Positions 11,298 to 41,078 are shown, counted from the stretch's first letter. The stretch: DNA of 64,000 nt from Dictyostelium discoideum (GCA_000004695.1 CM000152.2:352001-416000), one strand, 5' to 3'. Numbers and translations are program-made. The notes: generated by a model not told the origin, from the letters alone.

Positions 11298-12198
11298 TTT
11301 TTTTAATTGTAATAAATTTTTTTTTATAAAACTACACAAGCACAAGCACAAACACAAACACAGAAGAAAAAAAAAAAAAAAGAAAAAAACTGTATGTAAA
11401 AATTTGTACTAATCTTAATTTTTTGAATTTTATTCCCATTAAACCACTATATCCCTTTTTTTTTTGTTTTTATTTTTGTTTTAATAATAGACTTTCATAC
11501 CTAAAAAAAAAAAAAAAAAAAAATCGAAAAATCCGAGTTTTTGTGTTTTTAGTTATAAGGTCGAATGATCATGTTTACTTTTTTTTTATTATTTTTTTAT
11601 TTTATTTCATTTTTATTTTTTTGTTTTTTTCCTCAATTCGATAACATTTACAATCCAAAGTTTTATATCTTAAAAATTGGATAAAAAAATAAAAATAAAA
11701 AAAAAAAACAAAAAAAAAAAAAATAAAAAAAAATAAAGTCGAAAACTCTAAAAAAAAAAAAAAAAAAAAAATTTATTTTTGTGGTCTTTTTTGATAAAAA
11801 TAGAATTTTTGGTAAAAGAAATAAATTAATTTATCATTTTTGTGGCCTTTTGTGTTCAATTAAAAGGGTATTTTATCATTTAATATTTAAAAAAATATTA
11901 TCATTTTTTTTCATTTTTTTTTTTTTTTTTTTTTATCCTCTTATAAATTCAAGTGCCCAATTAAATTACTATAAAAATAAATAAAAAAATAAAAAAATAA
12001 AAAAAAATAAATAATAAATAAATAAAAATAAAAATAAATTAAAACATGAAATAAAACCCTTACACTCACTTTTTACCCCACATCTTGTTTTATTGTTACT
12101 CTTCAATTTTGATATAAATTTTTTTATATAGATATTTATATCTATGTAAAAAAAAAAAAAAAATAAAAATAAATACAAAACGTTAGAGACTAACCAAA

Positions 12199-12219
12199 TT
12201 ATTATTATTATTATTATTA

Positions 12220-12290
<71 letters not shown>
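12199..12290. repeat. (ATT)n microsatellite, about 30 units
   Basis: Direct reading. Confidence 0.9.
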
Positions 12291-12291
<1 letters not shown>

Positions 12292-12617
12292 TTATTTTTA
12301 TTTATTTTTTATTTTTATTTTTTTTATAAAAATTTCAATTTTTTTTTTTTATTATTATAATTTTTTAACCACTACAGGTGTATATATATAATTATTTATT
12401 CAATTAAAAAAAGACATATAAACCACACATAAAAAAAAACAAAACAACAAAAAAAAAAAAAAAAAAAAAAAAAAAACACATTTGTTTTTTTTTTAAAATT
12501 TTTTATTTTTTATTTTTTTATATTATACATATAAATTATTCGTCATCATCAATAATTATATATACACATAAAAAAAAAAAAAAAAACACACACACATCAC
12601 ATATATAAATATATAAA

Positions 12618-12838
12618 ATGACAGGTTCACATGAAATGGAGTCTATAATGTTAGATTCAATGGAAGAAGAATTTCCAGTTTCAGTTGAAACCTTAGGAAA
12701 ATTAGTAGATGTACCAAAAGGTTTCGATACATACGCTGAGTTAGGTGGACTTAGCGGTTTATCAACAAAATTAAAATCAAATATAAAAACTGGTTTACCA
12801 TTAGAAAAATCATCAACAGAAGAAAATAGAGTTTTAAA
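12618..12838 (+). CDS. patA: P-type (P2B) plasma-membrane-type Ca2+-ATPase, exon 1
   Basis: ATG at 12618 directly after an acacacacacatcacatatataaatatataaaATG context. The N-terminus FPVSVETLGKLVDVPKGFDTYAELGGLSGLSTKL...ENRVLK matches the PMCA N-terminal segment. Donor GTAAGT at 12839, exon ends in phase 2. Confidence 0.85.
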
Positions 12839-12977
12839 GTAAGTTTTTTCCAAAAAAAATAAAAATATAACGATCAACAATGGATTTGGAAAAAAAAAAA
12901 AAAAAAAAAAATTTTAGTGTGTGAGTGTGTGGGTGTTAACATTTTTTTTATTTTATTATTTTTAATTTTAATTTTAG

Positions 12978-15900
12978 ATATTCAAAAAATATTTTACCAG
13001 ATCCACCCCATCAACCATTATGGTCAATTGTTTTAGATGCATTATCAGATCATATTTTAATACTTTTAATAGTGGCAGCAGTAGTGTCAATTGTATTGGG
13101 TTCAATTGATTATACATCAGATCATCCAGAGACAGGATGGATTGATGGTGTTGCAATTTTAGTAGCAGTTATATTGGTAGTTGGTATTACATCATTGAAT
13201 GATTTCAAGAATCAAGCTAGATTTAGAGAATTAAATGACAAGAGTAACGATAAGGAAGTTAAAGGTATTCGTGGTGGTGAACAATGTCAAATATCAATAT
13301 TCGATGTCAAGGTTGGTGATATTATCTCATTGGACACTGGTGATATCATTTGTGCCGATGGTGTTTTCATTGAAGGACATGCATTGAAATGTGATGAATC
13401 ATCAATCACAGGTGAGAGTGACCCAATCAAGAAGGGTCAACCACAAGACAATATGGACCCATTCTTAATCTCTGGTTCAATGGTAATCGAAGGTTTTGGT
13501 ACGATGTTAGTCACAGCCGTTGGTGTAAATTCATTCAATGGTAAAACTATGATGGGTCTCAGAGTGGCCTCTGAAGACACACCACTCCAAATGAAATTAT
13601 CCGTGTTGGCAAGTCGTATTGGTTATTTCGGTATGGGTGCTGCCATTCTCATGTTGCTCATTGCAATTCCAAAATATTTCATTCAACGTAAAGTACATGA
13701 CATTGAAATCACTCGTGAAGATGCTCAACCAATTGTACAATTGGTGATTAGTGCTATCACTATCGTTGTGGTTGCTGTCCCAGAGGGTCTACCATTGGCT
13801 GTAACTATGGCTTTGGCATATGGTATGATGAAGATGTTTAAGGAGAATAATTTAGTACGTAATTTAGCATCCTGCGAAACTATGGGTTCTGCAACAACTA
13901 TTTGCTCCGATAAAACTGGTACACTCACTCAAAATGTTATGTCTGTTGTCACTGGTACCATTTGTGGTGTTTTCCCAACCCTCGACGGCATTGCTCAAAA
14001 GATTCCAAAACATGTTCAATCCATCCTCACCGACGGTATGGCCATTAATTCAAATGCCTACGAAGGTGTTTCTAGTAAGGGTAAATTGGAATTCATTGGT
14101 TCAAAGACTGAATGTGCATTATTAAATTTTGGTAAATTATTTGGTTGCGATTATAATGAAGTTAGAAAACGTTTAGAAGTAGTCGAACTTTATCCATTCT
14201 CATCCGCAAGAAAAAGAATGAGTGTATTGGTCAAACATGATCAAAATCTTCGTTTATTCACAAAGGGTGCCTCTGAAATCATCCTTGGCCAATGTGGTAG
14301 TTACCTTGATGAAGCTGGTAACATTCGTCCAATCTCTGAGGCAAAAGCATACTTTGAAGAACAAATTAATAATTTCGCTAGTGATGCACTTCGTACCATT
14401 GGTTTAGCCTATAGAGACTTCCAATATGGTGAATGTGATTTCAAAGAGCCACCAGAGAATAACTTGGTTTTCATTGGTATCGTTGGTATTAAGGATCCAT
14501 TACGTCCAGAGGTACCAGAGGCTGTGGAAATTTGTAAACGTGCTGGTATCGTAGTTCGTATGGTAACTGGTGATAATTTAGTGACCGCTCAAAACATTGC
14601 ACGTAATTGTGGTATTCTTACAGAGGGTGGTCTTTGTATGGAGGGTCCAAAATTCCGTGAACTTTCTCAATCGGAAATGGATGCAATTCTTCCAAAACTT
14701 CAAGTTTTAGCTCGTTCATCACCAACCGATAAACAATTGTTGGTTGGTCGTTTAAAGGATTTAGGTGAGGTTGTCGCTGTTACTGGTGATGGTACAAACG
14801 ATGGTCCTGCCCTTAAATTGGCAAATGTTGGTTTCTCTATGGGTATCTCTGGTACTGAGGTTGCCATTGCCGCTTCCGATGTCGTACTTTTGGATGATAA
14901 TTTCGCTTCAATTGTTCGTGCCGTCTTATGGGGTCGTAATATTTATGACGCAATTTGTAAATTCCTTCAATTCCAATTGACAGTAAATGTAGTAGCTGTC
15001 ACTGTTGCATTCATTGGTACATTAACAAGCGATGTTGTTGAAGATAAAGATAATTCCTCCTCCAGTGGTAGTGCTGATAAAGTTACCGAGGAGGAGCCAC
15101 GTCAAGGTTCACCATTAACAGCTGTACAATTACTTTGGGTCAATCTTATTATGGATACTTTAGCCGCTTTAGCACTTGCAACCGAACCACCAACACCAGA
15201 ATTATTAGAACGTCCACCAAATGGTAAGAATGCACCATTGATCACTCGTTCAATGTGGAAGAATATCATTGGTCAAGCTGCACTTCAATTGGCTATTCTT
15301 TTCACAATTCTCTATCAAGGTCATAACATTTTCCAACATTTCGTCCCACAAGCTCATGGTCCAATCATAAAGAATGGTTTACATCATTATACTTTGGTTT
15401 TCAATTGTTTCGTTTTCCTTCAACTCTTTAATGAAATCAATGCTCGTGTACTCGGTAGTAGAACAAATCCATTTAAAAACTTTTTCAATAACCCAATTTT
15501 CATTGCTGTCATGATCTTCACTTTGGGTGTTCAAATCATTTTCGTTACATTTGGTGGTTCTGCAACTTCAACCGATTCTCTCTACATTGTTGAATGGATT
15601 TGTTGTGTTGTAGTTGGTGCCATCTCTTTACCAGTTGGTTTATTATTAAGAAAGATTCCAATTCGTGAACCAGTTGTAAAGAATGAAATACCAGTTCACT
15701 CTGAAGCTGTTTACACTTCTCCATCTCCAAATCCTTCCTCTTCCAATTTATTAGGTAGTGGTGGTGCTAAACCAATCTCAAAGGATTATCCAACCTCTGG
15801 TGAATCAACTCCACCAATCAATGATGAAGGCTCACCATTGGTCACAAGAAAGACCTCTGTTGGTGCCAGTGCAAATGATAATATCAATACTCCAATCCCA

Positions 15901-16104
15901 TCATCCTCATCAAATCTTGTAAATTTAAATAAACCAACCCAAGTTGGTAGAGGTTGGCAAATAGTAAGACAAACTCATAAAAAATTGGTTGTAATTAATG
16001 CTCTCAAAGAATTTAGTCAAAATAAAGAACCTGGTCTTGTTGATGTAGTTCGTGGTACAAATAGAGGTTCTTTACATTTACCTGTAAATCAAATTAATAA
16101 TTAA
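12978..16104 (+). CDS. patA: P-type (P2B) plasma-membrane-type Ca2+-ATPase, exon 2
   Basis: Acceptor tttaattttAG at 12976-12977. The junction gives ...RVLK|YSKNILPDPPHQPLWSIVLDALSDHILILLIVAAVVSIVLG, the conserved PMCA TM1 region. P-type signatures are present: CSDKTGTLT (phosphorylated Asp), MVTGDN and GDGTNDGPALK. The total CDS is 3348 nt, giving 1115 aa, which matches my recollection of Dictyostelium PAT1. Stop at 16102-16104. Confidence 0.9.
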
Positions 16105-16587
16105 TAATTAAAAAAAAAAATCAAAAAAAAAAAAATCAAAAAATATACATAAAATTACAAATATAATAGTATAATTATTTAAATAAAATCGATTCTTATT
16201 TTTTTTTTTTTTATATATATTTTTTTTTTAAATCTAAAAATAAAAAAAAAAAAAATAAAACAAAATAAAAGAAAATAATTAAAATATGAGAAAATAATAA
16301 TTTATCCAAACTATTTTTTTAATTTTTTTTTTTTTAATTTTATATATATAATAATATATCATTTATAAAGATTATTCCTCCAAAGTCGCAACAACAAGAA
16401 TATTCCATTCATTCTATTTTTGGGATTTATTTTTTTAAATTTTTATTTTTTCAATTTATTTTTTTTTTTTTTATTTTTTTTTTTTATTTTGTATTTTTTT
16501 TTTATTTTTTTATTTTGTATTTTTTTTTTATTTTTTTTTTTTTAATATTTTTTTTTATAATTTATTTTGTTTTTATTTTTTTTATAA

Positions 16588-35739: not shown

Positions 35740-36010
35740 TTATGGTTGATATTGTGGTTGTTGTTGTTGTGGTTGATAGAATTGTGGTGGTTGTTGTGGA
35801 ACTTGTTGATAAGTTGGATAAGCTCCTTCACTTTGATAAATTGGAATGGTGGCAGGTGGACTTTGTCCAACGCATGATTTTGTGAATTCACATTCATTAT
35901 AATGTTTAACCATCTTGTGAGTATAAAATGCATCAAATAGCCAACCTAAACCAAATACACCTGCTGTAAAGAAATATAAAAAGAATGTACCAACTCTTCC
36001 TAAATATAAT
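35740..36010 (-). CDS. TM2 domain-containing protein, exon 2
   Basis: Intron at plus 36011-36105 (donor GTAAAA, acceptor aaatttaaAG). The exon reads R|LYLGRVGTFFLYFFTAGVFGLGWLFDAFYTHKMVKHYNECEF...QPQYQP*, the TM2 motif HRxYLG...G..G.W...D. Confidence 0.75.
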
Positions 36011-36105
36011 CTTTAAATTTATTTTTTTTTAAAAAAAAAAAAAAAATTAATATTTTAAAAATATATTTTTGTGTGTGTGTTTTTATTAAATTAATTAATT
36101 TTTAC

Positions 36106-36320
36106 CTGTGGAAACCTAAAATACCAAAAAAGAACCAAAGTACATAAGCAACGGTCATTGATTTTGGACAATATGATGATGATCTTGATCCATATACAAC
36201 TGGAACTGGTGTAACAATTGGTGTAACTAAAACTGCACCTCCACCATAGTGTCCACTACCATGATGGTGATGATGATGGTGATGACCGCTGCCTCCGTGA
36301 TGATGATGATGATGACCCAT
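36106..36320 (-). CDS. TM2 domain-containing protein, exon 1, with a natural poly-His N-terminus
   Basis: MGHHHHHHGGSGHHHHHHHHGSGHYGGG...SYCPKSMTVAYVLWFFFGILGFH(R). The poly-His is encoded by (catcat)n on the plus strand at 36249-36318. Confidence 0.75.
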
Positions 36321-36978
36321 TTATATTATATTATATTTTTATTTTATTTTATTTTTATTTTATTTTTATTTTATTTTATTTTTTTATTTTACAATATACT
36401 TTTATTTATTTTATGTATATATATTTTTTTTCTTTGGAAATATAAGAAAAAGAAAAAAAAAAAAAAAAATTTTTAGTGCCTTTTGGTGTGAAAAAAAAAA
36501 AAATAAAAAAAATAAAAAAAATTTAATTCAAAAAAAAATAAAATAAATTTGCGTTATATTGATATCTCAAAAAATCAAAAAATCAAATAATTTATTTTTT
36601 ATTTTTTTTAATTTTTTTTTTTTTTTTGAAAATTTAAAAAAAGGGATCGCAGACTCACATTTTTATTTTTTTTTAATCATTAAGAAATCTGTCATTCTCT
36701 TCACCCAAAAAAACAAACTAAAAAAAAAAAAGAAAGAAATTTCTTTTTTAACCAAAGAATTATTAATAATACCAATAAAACTCGTTAATATTTTTTTTAA
36801 AATGACCAATCTTTAAGTAAAAAAAAAAAATTAAAATAAAATAATTATATAAATATATAATTTAAAACCAAATAATATTTTGTTTTCCTTAAAAAAAAAA
36901 AAAAAAAAAAAAATTAATCGTTGGAAAAAAAATCATTAACTTAAAAATATATCGAAAATCAAACAATAAAAAAAATGG

Positions 36979-37116
36979 AATTTTAAATGTTTAATTGATT
37001 GTGATATTAAATAAATATTATTTGTTAAAAAATGAAATTATTATTAACAATATTATCAAAATAATGTTATATTGTTTTTTTACTCCGTCATTTGGTATTT
37101 TTTCATTTTTTTGTTT
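36979..37116. repeat. Left arm of a 138-bp inverted repeat, about 97% identical to the reverse complement of 37872..38010
   Basis: aattttaaatgtttaattgattgtgatattaaataaatattatttgttaaaaaatgaaattattattaacaatattatcaaaataatgttatattgtttttttactccgtcatttggtattttttcatttttttgttt versus the reverse complement of the right arm. Differences: c/t once, tt insertion once, g/t once. Confidence 0.9.
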
Positions 37117-37596
37117 GTTTAATTGGTAAATAAATTCATCAGTTGAGTTTGAAAATAAAATATCAATTTTACCATTTTCATAAAAATAAGTATAATTTGT
37201 AAAATTACCAAAACAACGAATAATTTGATCATTTTCAATTGAACAACTTGTAACAGTTGGTAATTCAAAATAAAATTCAGTACGTGTAGTTTGGTTACCA
37301 ATTGAAATTGAAATTTGATTCCTTCCACAACCTTTTGGAATTCGGAAGAGAATATATCATTGGAATTATCAATACCTTTAATAGTTGTATTATAATTATC
37401 CATGAATGAAAGAGTTTGTAAACTATTATTATTTATTATTACATTTACATTATATAATGTATAGTTTACAAGTTGACCAAGTACTGATAGTGGTAGTGAT
37501 GGTTGTGATGATTTACAAAGAATGAAATCAATTTGGATAACATTTGATTTTTTACCATTTGCAATTAAATATAAATTTGAATTTTTAAAAGTTTGA
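37067..37596 (-). pseudogene. Frameshifted member of an uncharacterised small gene family, paralogous to 39070..39262, overlapping the left inverted-repeat arm
   Basis: The minus-strand reading is ...NGKKSNVIQIDFILCKSSQPSLPLSVLGQLVNYTLYNVNVIINNNSLQTLSFMDNYNTTIKGIDNSNDIFSSEFQKV, then a 1-nt deletion near 37345, then IPKGCGRNQISISIGNQTTRTEFYFELPTVTSCSIENDQIIRCFGNFTNY...KQKNEKIPNDGVKKTI*. There is no ATG at the 5' end, and the deletion is defined relative to the 39-kb copy. Confidence 0.5.
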
Positions 37597-37622
37597 TTTG
37601 AAGGTGTAAATGATTAAGTTGT

Positions 37623-37922
37623 TTGTTTAATATGGATTCATTTTCATTTAAATTTAATAATAATTATAAAACAAATGAAGTTTATTTAAATGTTTGTATT
37701 GAACTATTACCAATTACTAATATTGTATTAAATTCAACAATTCAAACATTTCAACCAACAATAACAATAAATACATTACAACCTCAATTAAATAGTTCGG
37801 CAGAGCAAGAAAATAAAGAAAATAAAACCAACAGTGACAGTTTTAGTTCAAATGAAAACATATTAAATAAGAAACAAAAAAATGAAAAAATAACAAATGA
37901 CGGAGTAAAAAAAACAATATAA
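37623..37922 (+). other. 99-codon plus-strand ORF inside the inverted duplication whose last 15 codons are the mirror copy of the minus-strand gene's C-terminus
   Basis: Ends ...KKQKNEKITNDGVKKTI*, encoded within the right IR arm. The upstream part (MFNMDSFSFKFNNNYKTNEVYLNVCIELLPITNIVLNS...) has no recognisable domain. Confidence 0.3.
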
Positions 37923-38010
37923 CATTATTTTAATAATATTGTTAATAATAATTTCATTTTTTAACAAATAATATTTATTTAATATCACAATCAATTAAAC
38001 ATTTAAAATT
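37872..38010. repeat. Right arm of the 138-bp inverted repeat
   Basis: See the left arm. The arms are separated by 755 bp. Confidence 0.9.
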
Positions 38011-38259
38011 TTATTAAAGTTTTATTTTTATTTTTATCTTTTTTTGATTTAATAAATGCTCATTTATCATTAGTTTTTTTTATTGTTTTTTTTAAAAATA
38101 GATTAGTTGGATGGGACAATGGAATGATTAAAATAAAAAGAAAATAAAAAAAAAAAAAAAAAAATAAAAAAACTTTGGAAAAAAAAAAAAAAAAAAAAAA
38201 AAAGCGAAAAAAAAGTGAAAAAAAAGCGAAAAAAATGTAAAATGAAAAATTTTTGTAAA

Positions 38260-38267
38260 ACCCATAA
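38260..38267 (+). promoter_or_regulatory. DUSE-like element (ACCCATAA), the Dictyostelium upstream sequence element of ncRNA genes
   Basis: aaaACCCATAAcatgtgctc matches the [AT]CCCA[CT]AA consensus reported roughly 60 nt upstream of Dictyostelium snRNA and Class I RNA genes. A relatively GC-rich, structured segment lies immediately downstream. Confidence 0.45.
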
Positions 38268-38324
38268 CATGTGCTCAAACAAAATAGCATTTTAGGGCAA
38301 GTTGAATTTATTTTTTAAAGTTAT

Positions 38325-38436
38325 GAAAAGATCTTGCACTCGGATTTCAATCCGATTCATTAGGGATTCCATCTCTAGTGAGTTTAGATTTCGTTTGCAG
38401 AGAAAAAACCTAGGCAGTTTCCACATCTGACTTTTC
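38325..38436 (+). ncRNA. Candidate small ncRNA (about 110 nt, unclassified) driven by the DUSE
   Basis: The island is about 40% GC in roughly 15% GC surroundings and starts about 60 nt after the DUSE. It contains a local hairpin cggat-ttca-atccg and ends ...ccacatCTGActttt, a T-run terminator candidate. It carries no ORF, did not match any of the U1, U2, U4, U5, U6, U6atac, U12 or 7SL motifs I checked it against, and does not look like a tRNA. The boundaries are approximate. Confidence 0.35.
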
Positions 38437-38477
38437 CTATATAAGAGCCTGATACTATTCACTCAAGCCTATATTCC

Positions 38478-38513
<36 letters not shown>

Positions 38514-38871
38514 ACCAATTATAAAATAGATAGATTTATTAATTGATTCATTTATTAATTATTATTATTATTACTATTAAAATAATTTAAAACTCAATAA
38601 TATTTTTTTTTTCTAAAAAAAAAAAAAGATTAGTCACTAAAAAAAAAAAAAGTGTGGGTTTAATGATAATTATGAAAATCATATACAACTACTAGTAGAA
38701 ATTAATATTAGTAGTAAATACTATTAGTAAAAATTATAAATAAAATAATTAAATAATCAATTAATTAAAAAAAAAAAAAAAATTCTACAAATAACATATA
38801 TATTTATTTTTAAAAAATAGTTTATGTGATGCCAATTAAATTAAAAAACCCCAAAAAAAAAAAAAAATAAT

Positions 38872-38996
38872 AATTACCTTTTGGTGTATAAGATCCATCA
38901 ATTTTGAAATTAAAAAAACAAATAAAAATAAAAATAAAAATATAATTTTCATATTGTAATTGCAATGTTTAGATCTTATACACCAAAAGGTAATTA
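38872..38996. repeat. Perfect 25-bp inverted repeat (taattaccttttggtgtataagatc ... gatcttatacaccaaaaggtaatta) with a 75-bp AT-rich spacer
   Basis: Direct reading of 38872-38896 and 38972-38996. The right arm contains a splice-donor-like AAG|GTAATT. Confidence 0.9.
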
Positions 38997-39069
38997 TTAT
39001 TTTTTTTTTTTTTTTTTTAAAAAAAATTAACTTAAATTTGACACTTTTTTAATTTTTATATTTAGTTAT

Positions 39070-39262
39070 TAATGTAAATGTAATAGATAAAATAGTTTAC
39101 CAACTCTTAAATTGATGGATAATACAATTATTAAAGGTACTGCCAGTTCAAATCAAACATACACTTTCCAAATTCCAAAAGGTTGTGGAAAGAATGAAAT
39201 TTCAATTTCAATGGGTAACCAAATTACACGTACTGAATTGAATTATGAATTACCATGTGAAT
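39070..39262 (+). pseudogene. Truncated paralog fragment (or isolated terminal exon) of the same family as the gene at 37067..37596
   Basis: NSLPTLKLMDNTIIKGTASSNQTYTFQIPKGCGKNEISISMGNQITRTELNYELPCEF*. It is about 80% identical in nucleotides to minus-strand 37230-37420, including about 25 bp upstream of the ORF. It is preceded by an in-frame stop and AT-rich DNA. Confidence 0.45.
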
Positions 39263-39452
39263 TTTGAAGAATTTAATTTAATTTCACCCACACCATGACC
39301 ACCACCACCACCACCACCGCCACCACCATTACCGAAACACTGTGTCAAAATTAAATAAAATAAAAAATGGATTTAATCATTTATTTTTATTATCTTTTTT
39401 TTTTATTTTTTTATTTTTTTTATTTTTTTTTTATTTTATTTTATTTATTTAT

Positions 39453-40277
39453 TTATTTCTTGGTGGGAAATTGAAAACTGAAAAAAATATTAAAATTAGC
39501 TAATAAACCTGGACAAGCTTGTTTAATTGAAGTTGTATCTAAAGTTTGATTAAAAATGGATTCTTTTTCTAAAAGATTATAAATTTCATAGGATGGTTCT
39601 TGATGTGATTTAATATTTAATTTCTCTAATAATTCAGTTTCGTTATCTTCATAGAAATGGTATCTTCCACCTAATCTTTGTTCAATTAATTCAACTGGTG
39701 TTTTACAATAAATATAAACACTATTATAATTTTCATTATTAATTTCAATAATTTTTTTGATTTCTTTAATTAATTTTTCATTATCATTATTATTATTAAT
39801 AATATTATTATATATAATTGAACTAATTGGAGATCTATGAATAAATATAATATTATTTTTAATTTCATCTTGATTATTATTATTATTATTATTTTTAATT
39901 AATTCAATTGATTGATTTAATGTATTATCAAATGATGATGTGGGTGGTGATGATAATGAATGTTTAAAAAATGAATTTTGAATAGTTTTATAACCAATAT
40001 TTGAAAATCTTTCTAAAAGTTGTTGTTTTCCACTACCACTTGGACCTTCTAAAAAAACAAATAATGGTTTCTTTTGTTCTTTAGATTTCTCTAATGCCTC
40101 TGATAGATTATCTGTTGGTTTCCACCATTCTCTTTCAACTGATCCTTCTTCTCTTATAGATTTTGAATAAAATTTTAATGATGATAAAGATGTTAAAGAT
40201 TCACCAAAAATTTTATTTTTTAAACAAATATTATTAATAGTTGATGATGTAAAATTATGATTTCTAACTAAAAACAT
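39453..40277 (-). CDS. P-loop NTPase / nucleoside-nucleotide kinase-like protein
   Basis: ATG at 40277-40275 in an aaaaataaaaATG context; the ORF-track start at 40295 is a TTG. Walker A is FVFLEGPSGSGKQQLLERF. The motif FIHRSPISSIIY resembles the ERS/DRS motif of deoxynucleoside kinases. Family assignment is tentative. Confidence 0.6.
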   Translation of the reverse strand: MFLVRNHNFTSSTINNICLKNKIFGESLTSLSSLKFYSKSIREEGSVEREWWKPTDNLSEALEKSKEQKKPLFVFLEGPSGSGKQQLLERFSNIGYKTIQNSFFKHSLSSPPTSSFDNTLNQSIELIKNNNNNNNQDEIKNNIIFIHRSPISSIIYNNIINNNNDNEKLIKEIKKIIEINNENYNSVYIYCKTPVELIEQRLGGRYHFYEDNETELLEKLNIKSHQEPSYEIYNLLEKESIFNQTLDTTSIKQACPGLLANFNIFFSFQFPTKK

Positions 40278-41078
40278 TTTTATTTTTAAACACAACCCCT
40301 CAACAAGATTACAAAAAAAAAAAAAAAAAAAAATTAAAAAAAAAATTAAAAAAATTTGATCAATTATTTCACTTTTTTTTTTTTTTATGTTTTATAATTT
40401 ATTTGTCCCACCATGTTTTTACAAAAAAAAAAAATAAAATAAAAAAAAAAAAAAATTAATAAAAAAAATTAAAATAATATAGGCTATTTTAGTTTGCAGA
40501 TAATAAAAAATGTGTTTTTTCTTTTATTTTGTATTTTAACTTTTGTAATAACCATTTAAAGTTTTTTTTTTTTTTTTTGGAAAGTGGAAAATGTGGGGTG
40601 AAAATATATACACATAAAAAATTATTGTGGGGGTAATTGTAGTAACTCTAACATTTTCTAAAAATAATTAAAATATTTTATAACTTAAATAATCATTAAA
40701 AAAAAAAAAAATTATCCACACACACTTATATAATAATAATAATATCATCAAAAACATTATCATTAAGAAAAAAAGTTTGAATCTATTGTCTTTTCAAAAA
40801 ATAATAATAATAAATAATAACATCAAAAAATAATATTATCATAAAAAAATAAAAAATTAAAAATTAAATGTTCGGTTTACTTTTAATTTCTTTTTTGTTT
40901 TATTATTATTATTTAATAAAATTAAAAAAAATAAAAAATAAAAAATTACCTAACTTTTTTTTAAAAAAAAAAAAAAATATTATTATTATCAAAAAAATTT
41001 TATTTTAAATATTTATTTATTAATTTATTATTTAATATAAATATTTCTAATATATATATTATATAATAAAACTATATA

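Follow-up and report, generated by a model that had tools for sequence, protein, structure and literature searches.

We predict that the region around position 38,300 of a 64,000-nucleotide (nt) stretch of Dictyostelium discoideum chromosome 3 (GCA_000004695.1, CM000152.2:352001-416000; the whole of this stretch is the window below, and positions are counted from its first base) carries a gene for a small non-coding RNA (ncRNA) under an upstream sequence element of Dictyostelium (DUSE). On balance, the sequence features favour a candidate that is an independent, species-restricted, DUSE-driven gene on the + strand, encoding an RNA of approximately 105-112 nt that does not belong to a described family. 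An unannotated DUSE-driven ncRNA had been put forward from inspection of the same DNA (the original prediction). That proposal is partly supported, by the motif, its spacing, constraint between haplotypes, a strand-specific fold and non-coding codon usage, whereas the lack of a homologue in the syntenic DNA of three other dictyostelids and the chance-level density of the octamer count against it.

The putative upstream promoter element is the octamer ACCCATAA, an exact match to the DUSE on the + strand at 38260-38267, where it had been reported to lie. In the supplementary tables of Kjellin et al. (2021), which accompany a classifier for Class I RNAs, this octamer is the top-scoring DUSE variant (score 13.38), and the DUSE starts 58-60 nt ahead of the TGTG box, or 58-67 nt ahead of the RNA start if the box is absent. 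Many D. discoideum ncRNA genes, transcribed by RNA polymerase II or III, have a DUSE about 60-63 nt upstream. The spacing of about 60 nt between motif and GC-rich island that was part of the original prediction also holds, as the island begins approximately 60-65 nt past the first base of the motif. The GC island, a block that is invariant between haplotypes and the predicted 5' stem all begin at DUSE start +45 to +65 (38305-38325). The true RNA start is a prediction: the published spacing of 58-67 nt puts it at 38318-38327, and the predicted 5' stem runs from 38325 (+65). The A/T-rich stretch at 38305-38324 (+ strand), with T6 at 38311-38316 and AGTTATG at DUSE start +59, is free of haplotype differences. 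It occupies the position of the TGTG box in D. discoideum Class I genes (DUSE start +58 to +60) and its sequence is not that of a TGTG box; it may constitute a proximal promoter or start-site region.

DUSE-like sequences are common in this genome. The octamer ACCCATAA occurs once in the 64-kilobase (kb) window, where dinucleotide shuffles lead to an expectation of 3.46 +/- 2.05 copies. The strict pattern [AT]CCCA[AT]AA is found 7 times on both strands (128 kb) and the looser pattern [AT]CCCA[ACT]AA 11 times, and outside coding and repetitive DNA the genome has 7,409 relaxed matches to the DUSE (Sucgang et al., 2011). Taking 7 strict motifs per 128 kb of strand as the basis, we estimate a probability of about 1-3 in 1000 that chance would place a strict motif in a suitably spaced slot of 10-20 nt to one or other side of an island. 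Another DUSE-like octamer, ACCCAAAA, is located at 36703-36710 (+ strand), approximately 380 nt upstream of a gene for a TM2-domain protein, and has a counterpart at a roughly corresponding place in D. citrinum (assembly L002, 11505-11512, - strand). Neither a GC island nor a structured segment follows it, and it is probably a chance occurrence or a promoter-proximal C-rich box.

The GC content is 0.29-0.39 over 38250-38449, compared with 0.08-0.18 on either side (100-nt windows), and reaches a maximum of 0.40 at 38312-38484 (120-nt windows). Both scans agree with the description of an island of about 40% GC within AT-rich DNA. All other islands of this strength in the window (40% GC over more than 100 nt, amid DNA of about 10-15% GC) are coding DNA or a copy of a tgr-like gene fragment at 39201-39373. 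The length of about 110 nt given in the original prediction is appropriate for the distance to the TTTT at 38432-38435, and not for the GC-rich stretch itself, which extends over about 160 nt (38320-38482). The proposed CTGA-TTTT 3' end is present, with CTGA at 38427-38430. The T4 run (38432-38435, + strand) is the first run of at least four T following T6 at 38311-38316, and is a candidate RNA polymerase III terminator. Beyond it are a GC-richer tail (38437-38482, + strand) and then a run of 27 A; the tail would be included in the transcript only given transcription by polymerase II or read-through of T4. The predicted RNA of approximately 105-112 nt (38325-38436, + strand) has a GC content of 0.39, with its 5' end predicted at about 38318-38327 and its 3' end within the T4 run.

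Using DDB_G0278169 as an anchor, the locus was retrieved from three D. discoideum assemblies (L001, L006 and the AX4-type L005), and from D. citrinum (L002), D. dimigraforme (L003) and D. purpureum (L004). Window positions 36000-41000 are 99.94% identical to an AX4-type chromosome-scale assembly (GCA_054883475.1, CM142509.1). The island and the DUSE are present in all of the D. discoideum assemblies compared (three besides the window). L001 and L006 are identical at the locus, so the comparison involves two haplotypes. The DUSE with its flanks, AACCCATAACA, is unchanged in L001 and L006, and two bases just upstream of it differ. The spacer between the DUSE and the conserved block (38268-38304, + strand) is variable: over its 37 nt, AX4 and L001/L006 are separated by 5 substitutions and 1 indel. 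The adjoining block (38305-38438) shows 0 differences in 134 nt, including all 112 nt of the predicted RNA, and stops 3 nt past the first T4 run downstream of the predicted start. The 44 nt after the block contain 2 substitutions (38439 and 38481), as expected at the neutral rate, and past them the A-run is rearranged. Across pooled intergenic DNA, divergence amounts to 156/3677, or 4.2% (substitutions only), and third codon positions of three neighbouring genes differ at 3.6-5.4%. Against neutral divergence, P(0/134) is 0.003 and the Fisher P value is 0.006. When a 178-nt window is slid along the 12 kb alignment, all other windows with at most 2 differences lie inside protein-coding genes.

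The predicted secondary structure is also strand-specific. The + strand of 38325-38436 has a minimum free energy (MFE) of -28.2 kcal/mol (z -2.1, equalled by 6 of 200 shuffles), whereas the - strand has a z score of +0.13. Better scores are obtained for 38330-38406 (z -3.6, versus -0.92 for the reverse complement) and for 38340-38384, which comprises two adjacent stem-loops (-18.6 kcal/mol, z -4.4 and none of 200 shuffles as good on the + strand; -9.8 kcal/mol and z -1.2 on the - strand). The 3' tail at 38405-38482 is unstructured (z -0.23, no better than shuffles). In both the MFE and the centroid structures, a terminal stem of 6 base pairs (bp) is predicted between GAAAAG (38325-38330) and CUUUUC (38431-38436). 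Stem-loop 1 (CGGAU-UUCA-AUCCG, 38341-38354, + strand) is the hairpin cggatttcaatccg of the original prediction. Directly after it is stem-loop 2 (38355-38383, + strand), which had not been reported and is the stronger of the two, with 13 bp, a 3-nt loop and three G-U pairs that become C-A on the opposite strand. The region of stem-loop 3 (38384-38430, + strand) is a weak prediction in which UUAGAU (38384-38389) could pair with AUCUGA (38425-38430), the interior being A-rich and weakly structured (GCAGAGAAAAAACC). In these folding models, the strand specificity favours an RNA read from the strand that carries the DUSE.

The motif, its spacing, the base composition, the constraint within the species, the strand-specific fold and the lack of membership in known families are properties of the DNA; from them we infer how the candidate might be transcribed, by which polymerase, where its RNA would end and how it might function. 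The DUSE at 38260-38267 would serve as the upstream promoter element, as at small nuclear RNA (snRNA) and Class I RNA genes, with transcription starting about 58-67 nt past the first base of the motif (approximately 38318-38327). Transcription would most likely stop at the T4 run (38432-38435), suggesting RNA polymerase III and an RNA of about 105-112 nt. Many Class I genes have T-runs after them. The RNA would fold into a junction formed by the short 5'/3' closing stem, the adjacent hairpins at 38341-38354 and 38355-38383 and a weaker third arm. By analogy with other DUSE-driven RNAs, it may be part of a small ribonucleoprotein (RNP).

The statement in the original prediction that the segment lacks an open reading frame (ORF) requires amendment: a 35-codon ATG ORF, MKRSCTRISIRFIRDSISSEFRFRLQRKNLGSFHI, is present on the + strand (38323-38430, with ATG at 38323 and TGA at 38428-38430), as is a 56-codon ORF on the - strand (38292-38462), and neither looks coding. 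It is very improbable that the locus is instead a tiny protein-coding gene in which the + strand ORF specifies a basic micropeptide and selection on that peptide explains the invariant block. The 108-nt ORF does fit the 134-nt block almost exactly, and with about 4% divergence only around one synonymous difference would be expected, so the lack of such differences is uninformative either way. However, an index similar to the codon adaptation index is 0.36 for this ORF versus 0.72 +/- 0.13 for segments of 35 codons taken from long ORFs in the window (0.8th percentile), GC content at third codon positions is 0.46 versus 0.17, and rare codons (CGG, CGA, AGG, CAG, CTA and GGC) are used. The ATG is at, or a few nt from, the start predicted from the DUSE, and thus a 5' leader is missing, and strong + strand hairpins lie inside the ORF. 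No protein match was found in any of the six frames when concatenated translations of the island were searched against 5.8 billion proteins.

An automated gene model for a protein of 150 amino acids (aa) in the AX4-type assembly L005 (11011-12643, corresponding to window 37632-39267, + strand) spans the candidate and is the sole model there. It could be rebuilt only as three exons, the middle one being poly-lysine derived from an A-run (38141-38254 or 38141-38270). We rejected it as evidence for coding, given the poly-lysine 'exon' and the position of the island within an 'intron'; the model is probably a spurious joining of two tgr-like fragments.

The original prediction found no match to U1, U2, U4, U5, U6 or 7SL, and this result now extends to all Rfam families. 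Nothing in the 64-kb window reaches the gathering score with Rfam 15, and only noise appears at E<=10 in 451 nt and 171 nt around the island. A signature scan for the Class I motif, TGTG box, Sm site, C box, A and B boxes, and U1, U2, U3, U5 and U6 returned only near-matches at chance level. Neither the supplement of Diesend (2022) on small nucleolar RNAs (snoRNAs) of the C/D type nor the Class I supplements of Kjellin (2021) contain the candidate. A full-text search for sequence strings, the scope of which did not include dictyBase or the unclassified cDNA clones of 2004, gave one match, to an unrelated paper on a human long non-coding RNA. The lack of a covariance-model hit and the octamer density at chance level, both among the outcomes by which the original prediction was to be refuted, exclude membership in a known family and do not exclude the gene itself. 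A tRNA or a target site of a tRNA-directed retroelement was excluded, as ARAGORN identified no tRNA in the window. We also rejected a microRNA (miRNA) precursor, because the longest hairpin (13 bp) is too short.

The candidate is snRNA-like and Class I-like at the promoter level, and lacks the defining features of Class I RNAs, snRNAs, snoRNAs and vault RNA. [quoted passage not shown] Unlike them, it is approximately 105-112 nt long from predicted start to first T4, about twice their 42-65 nt, and lacks the 11-nt motif CCUUACAGCAA, for which the best match in 38300-38490 has 5 mismatches. Also lacking are a GUUGA 5' end in register, a TGTG box and any match to the Rfam model, even at E<=10. 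The Class I 8-mers CCTTACAG and CTTACAGC occur nowhere in the window. Class I RNAs constitute a multigene family, whereas the candidate is single copy in the 230 kb of dictyostelid DNA compared.

The spliceosomal snRNAs (U1, U2, U4, U5 and U6) are likewise encoded by polymerase II and III genes with the same element, at a distance similar to that predicted here, and are of comparable size (about 100-200 nt). The candidate differs from them in having no Rfam match, Sm site or U1, U2 or U5 signature (U1 5' end, U2 branch-point site and U5 loop 1; best motif matches have 1-5 mismatches, at chance level), and in not being conserved at this locus in other dictyostelids. GCAGAGA at 38397-38403, with UAGGCA 9 nt on, resembles the U6 ACAGAGA box, and GGATTCCATCTCTAG (38364-38378) resembles box A of U3 with 5 mismatches. 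Both were judged to be chance resemblances, with no Rfam score.

A length of about 100 nt, predicted paired termini and a 3' U-run are reminiscent of vault RNA and Y RNA. D. discoideum does have vaults, with MVPA, MVPB and a TEP1 orthologue, and a paper on these particles (2026) names no vault RNA for the species. However, boxes A and B are lacking (the closest sequences carry 5 and 3 mismatches and are wrongly positioned, with the box B-like sequence at +19), there is no match to the Rfam Vault or Y_RNA models, and the terminal stem is just 6 bp. The absence from syntenic DNA of sister species would also be unexpected for a core RNP RNA. A sub-reading of the new-class proposal discussed below, in which the candidate would supply the RNA of a particle for which no Dictyostelium RNA was found named, such as the vault/TEP1 complex, is highly improbable and much less likely than that proposal itself.

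Features of snoRNAs are partial at best. As in box C/D snoRNAs, CUGA (38427-38430) is present and is followed by CUUU, which is able to pair with AAAG (38317-38320) upstream of an AUGA element. However, the 'C box' is AUGAAAA rather than RUGAUGA (2 mismatches) and needs a 4-nt bulge, C' and D' boxes are lacking, the length of about 119 nt is long for the class, and no Rfam snoRNA model matches. For box H/ACA snoRNAs, AGAGAA (38399-38404) is a possible H box, but no ACA follows the 3' hairpin (only AUA, 38472-38474), pocket loops are not predicted, and the 3' half has a z score of -0.23.

The candidate site is intergenic, with a tgr-like (Ig_TgrO1) gene remnant (+ strand) to one side and the 3' end of DDB_G0278169 to the other, the two genes being convergent. 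This tail-to-tail arrangement, which counts in favour of an independent RNA gene, is seen in both AX4 and L001. An alternative is a DNA- or mRNA-level cis element, either as part of a long 3' untranslated region of the tgr-like gene, as a terminator or insulator between the convergent genes, or as a distal regulatory module. The position between convergent genes is in keeping with such an element, as is the placement of the island approximately 270-330 nt downstream of the tgr-like coding remnant (where coding similarity ends near 37922-38034) on the same strand. G/C-rich boxes within A/T-rich DNA are typical regulatory elements of Dictyostelium. However, the duplicated tgr unit ends at 38034 and the paralogous copy has no island downstream, and in tail-to-tail intergenic DNA the promoter of a neighbouring gene is not expected. 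An invariant stretch of 134 nt far exceeds a typical regulatory box, and the asymmetry of the fold, the canonical DUSE distance and the T4 run at the end of the block would be left unexplained. We consider a cis element improbable.

DDB_G0278169 (39453-40277, - strand) encodes 274 aa, and DDB_G0278171 (41144-43891) encodes 915 aa. The inverted repeats 36955-37081 / 37908-38034 and 37258-37347 / 39166-39255, each 91% complementary, are remnants of tgr-like (Ig_TgrO1) genes. In L001, the interval 11881-16290 encodes two full-length tgr-like genes of 538 and 390 aa in divergent orientation. This pair has collapsed to a hybrid remnant in AX4, L006 has an intermediate state, and D. citrinum and D. 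dimigraforme have neither gene. The tgr locus is species-specific and structurally polymorphic. Approximately 690-780 nt of AX4 sequence (window 38573-39349) are missing from L001 and L006 (about 90 nt in L001), and this AX4-specific segment carries a duplicated fragment of a tgr-like exon (39112-39267) as well as a GC island rich in Gly/His (39201-39373). Long A-runs flank the locus (38137-38236, and 38484-38510 for the A27 directly after the island) and vary among strains in length and interruptions. Because of this variation, divergence in the flanks looks inflated and alignments there are unreliable.

The candidate gene is limited to D. discoideum at this locus. Conservation of the island in other dictyostelids, a check raised by the original prediction, was not found in the syntenic intergenic DNA of any of the three species compared, D. 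citrinum, D. dimigraforme and D. purpureum. In the first two species, the TM2-domain gene directly follows DDB_G0278169, and the tgr-like genes and the island are missing. BLASTN, TBLASTX and a filtered search with R1, a covariance model purpose-built from the candidate, recovered only the four D. discoideum copies from the 230 kb of dictyostelid DNA. No island occurs beside the tgr paralogues of 'D. cf. discoideum' genomes, exact-pattern scans of JGI metagenome contigs yielded no match, and the 90% cluster of DDB_G0278171 added no further species. Class I RNA and miRNA genes of Dictyostelium are mostly species-specific and show little synteny, so absence from sister species is not unusual, though it removes the strongest computational test.

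Several of these results weigh against an ncRNA gene. The chance-level octamer counts in the window and in the genome mean that the octamer by itself proves nothing. The conservation test has only two haplotypes, and if GC-richer unique DNA mutates at 2-3% instead of 4%, P becomes 0.02-0.07. The z score of the whole RNA is modest (-2.1) and the ends of the fold were picked after inspection of the sequence. The 35-codon ORF sits almost exactly within the invariant block, and the candidate lacks an Sm site, boxes of the C/D or H/ACA type, boxes A and B and the Class I motif, any of which would point to a function. BLAST identified no orthologue in any of the three syntenic regions (D. citrinum, D. 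dimigraforme and D. purpureum), and an unfiltered R1 search of those of the first two species found nothing. With no paralogue in the 230 kb compared, there is neither covariation nor a family to draw on.

The main alternative is a chance DUSE-like octamer beside non-functional GC-richer DNA, such as a transposable element fragment, a decayed exon or DNA brought in by a tgr-like insertion or rearrangement, with no stable RNA produced. The apparent conservation would then reflect a lower mutation rate and the easier alignment of unique sequence than of A/T-homopolymer flanks. The octamer count at or below chance in the window and the 7,409 relaxed matches in the genome are consistent with this explanation, as is the small sample of two haplotypes. 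The whole segment from DDB_G0278169 to the TM2-domain gene is a D. discoideum-specific insertion with tgr-like genes, the locus is unstable (inverted duplications and the AX4-specific insertion of about 700 nt), and the A27 run follows the island as it would a retroposed copy. However, the 44 nt beyond the block match it in GC content and are likewise unique, and these diverge at the neutral rate (2/44), so the invariance does not simply track composition. The joint pattern of an intact motif, a variable spacer, an invariant block that ends at T4 and a fold on the strand of the motif is unlikely to arise in this way. Moreover, the island resembles neither tgr genes nor any other sequence in the 230 kb compared, and has no protein match in any frame. 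We regard a chance or relic origin as unlikely, though as the likeliest of the alternatives to the DUSE-driven ncRNA gene that we favour.

More tentatively, and with greater doubt than attaches to the existence of the gene, the locus might give rise to an RNA of about 110 nt that is expressed, is subject to purifying selection and is the founding member of a DUSE-dependent class apart from snRNAs and Class I RNAs. Such a gene could have arisen, or been captured, after the split of D. discoideum and D. citrinum, within a rearranging locus of the tgr (allorecognition) family.

D. discoideum serves as a model of how multicellularity evolved, and its DUSE-driven Class I RNAs, which are abundant and regulated during development, occur in dictyostelids only. 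If the candidate is not expressed, it would be a warning that, with thousands of chance motifs present, even a perfect DUSE correctly spaced from a GC island can be a false positive. If it is expressed, it would be a testable addition to an incomplete ncRNA catalogue, and would indicate that the DUSE promoter serves more types of RNA than snRNAs and Class I RNAs. It would also provide a clean, single-copy case of a very young ncRNA gene that is already under constraint.

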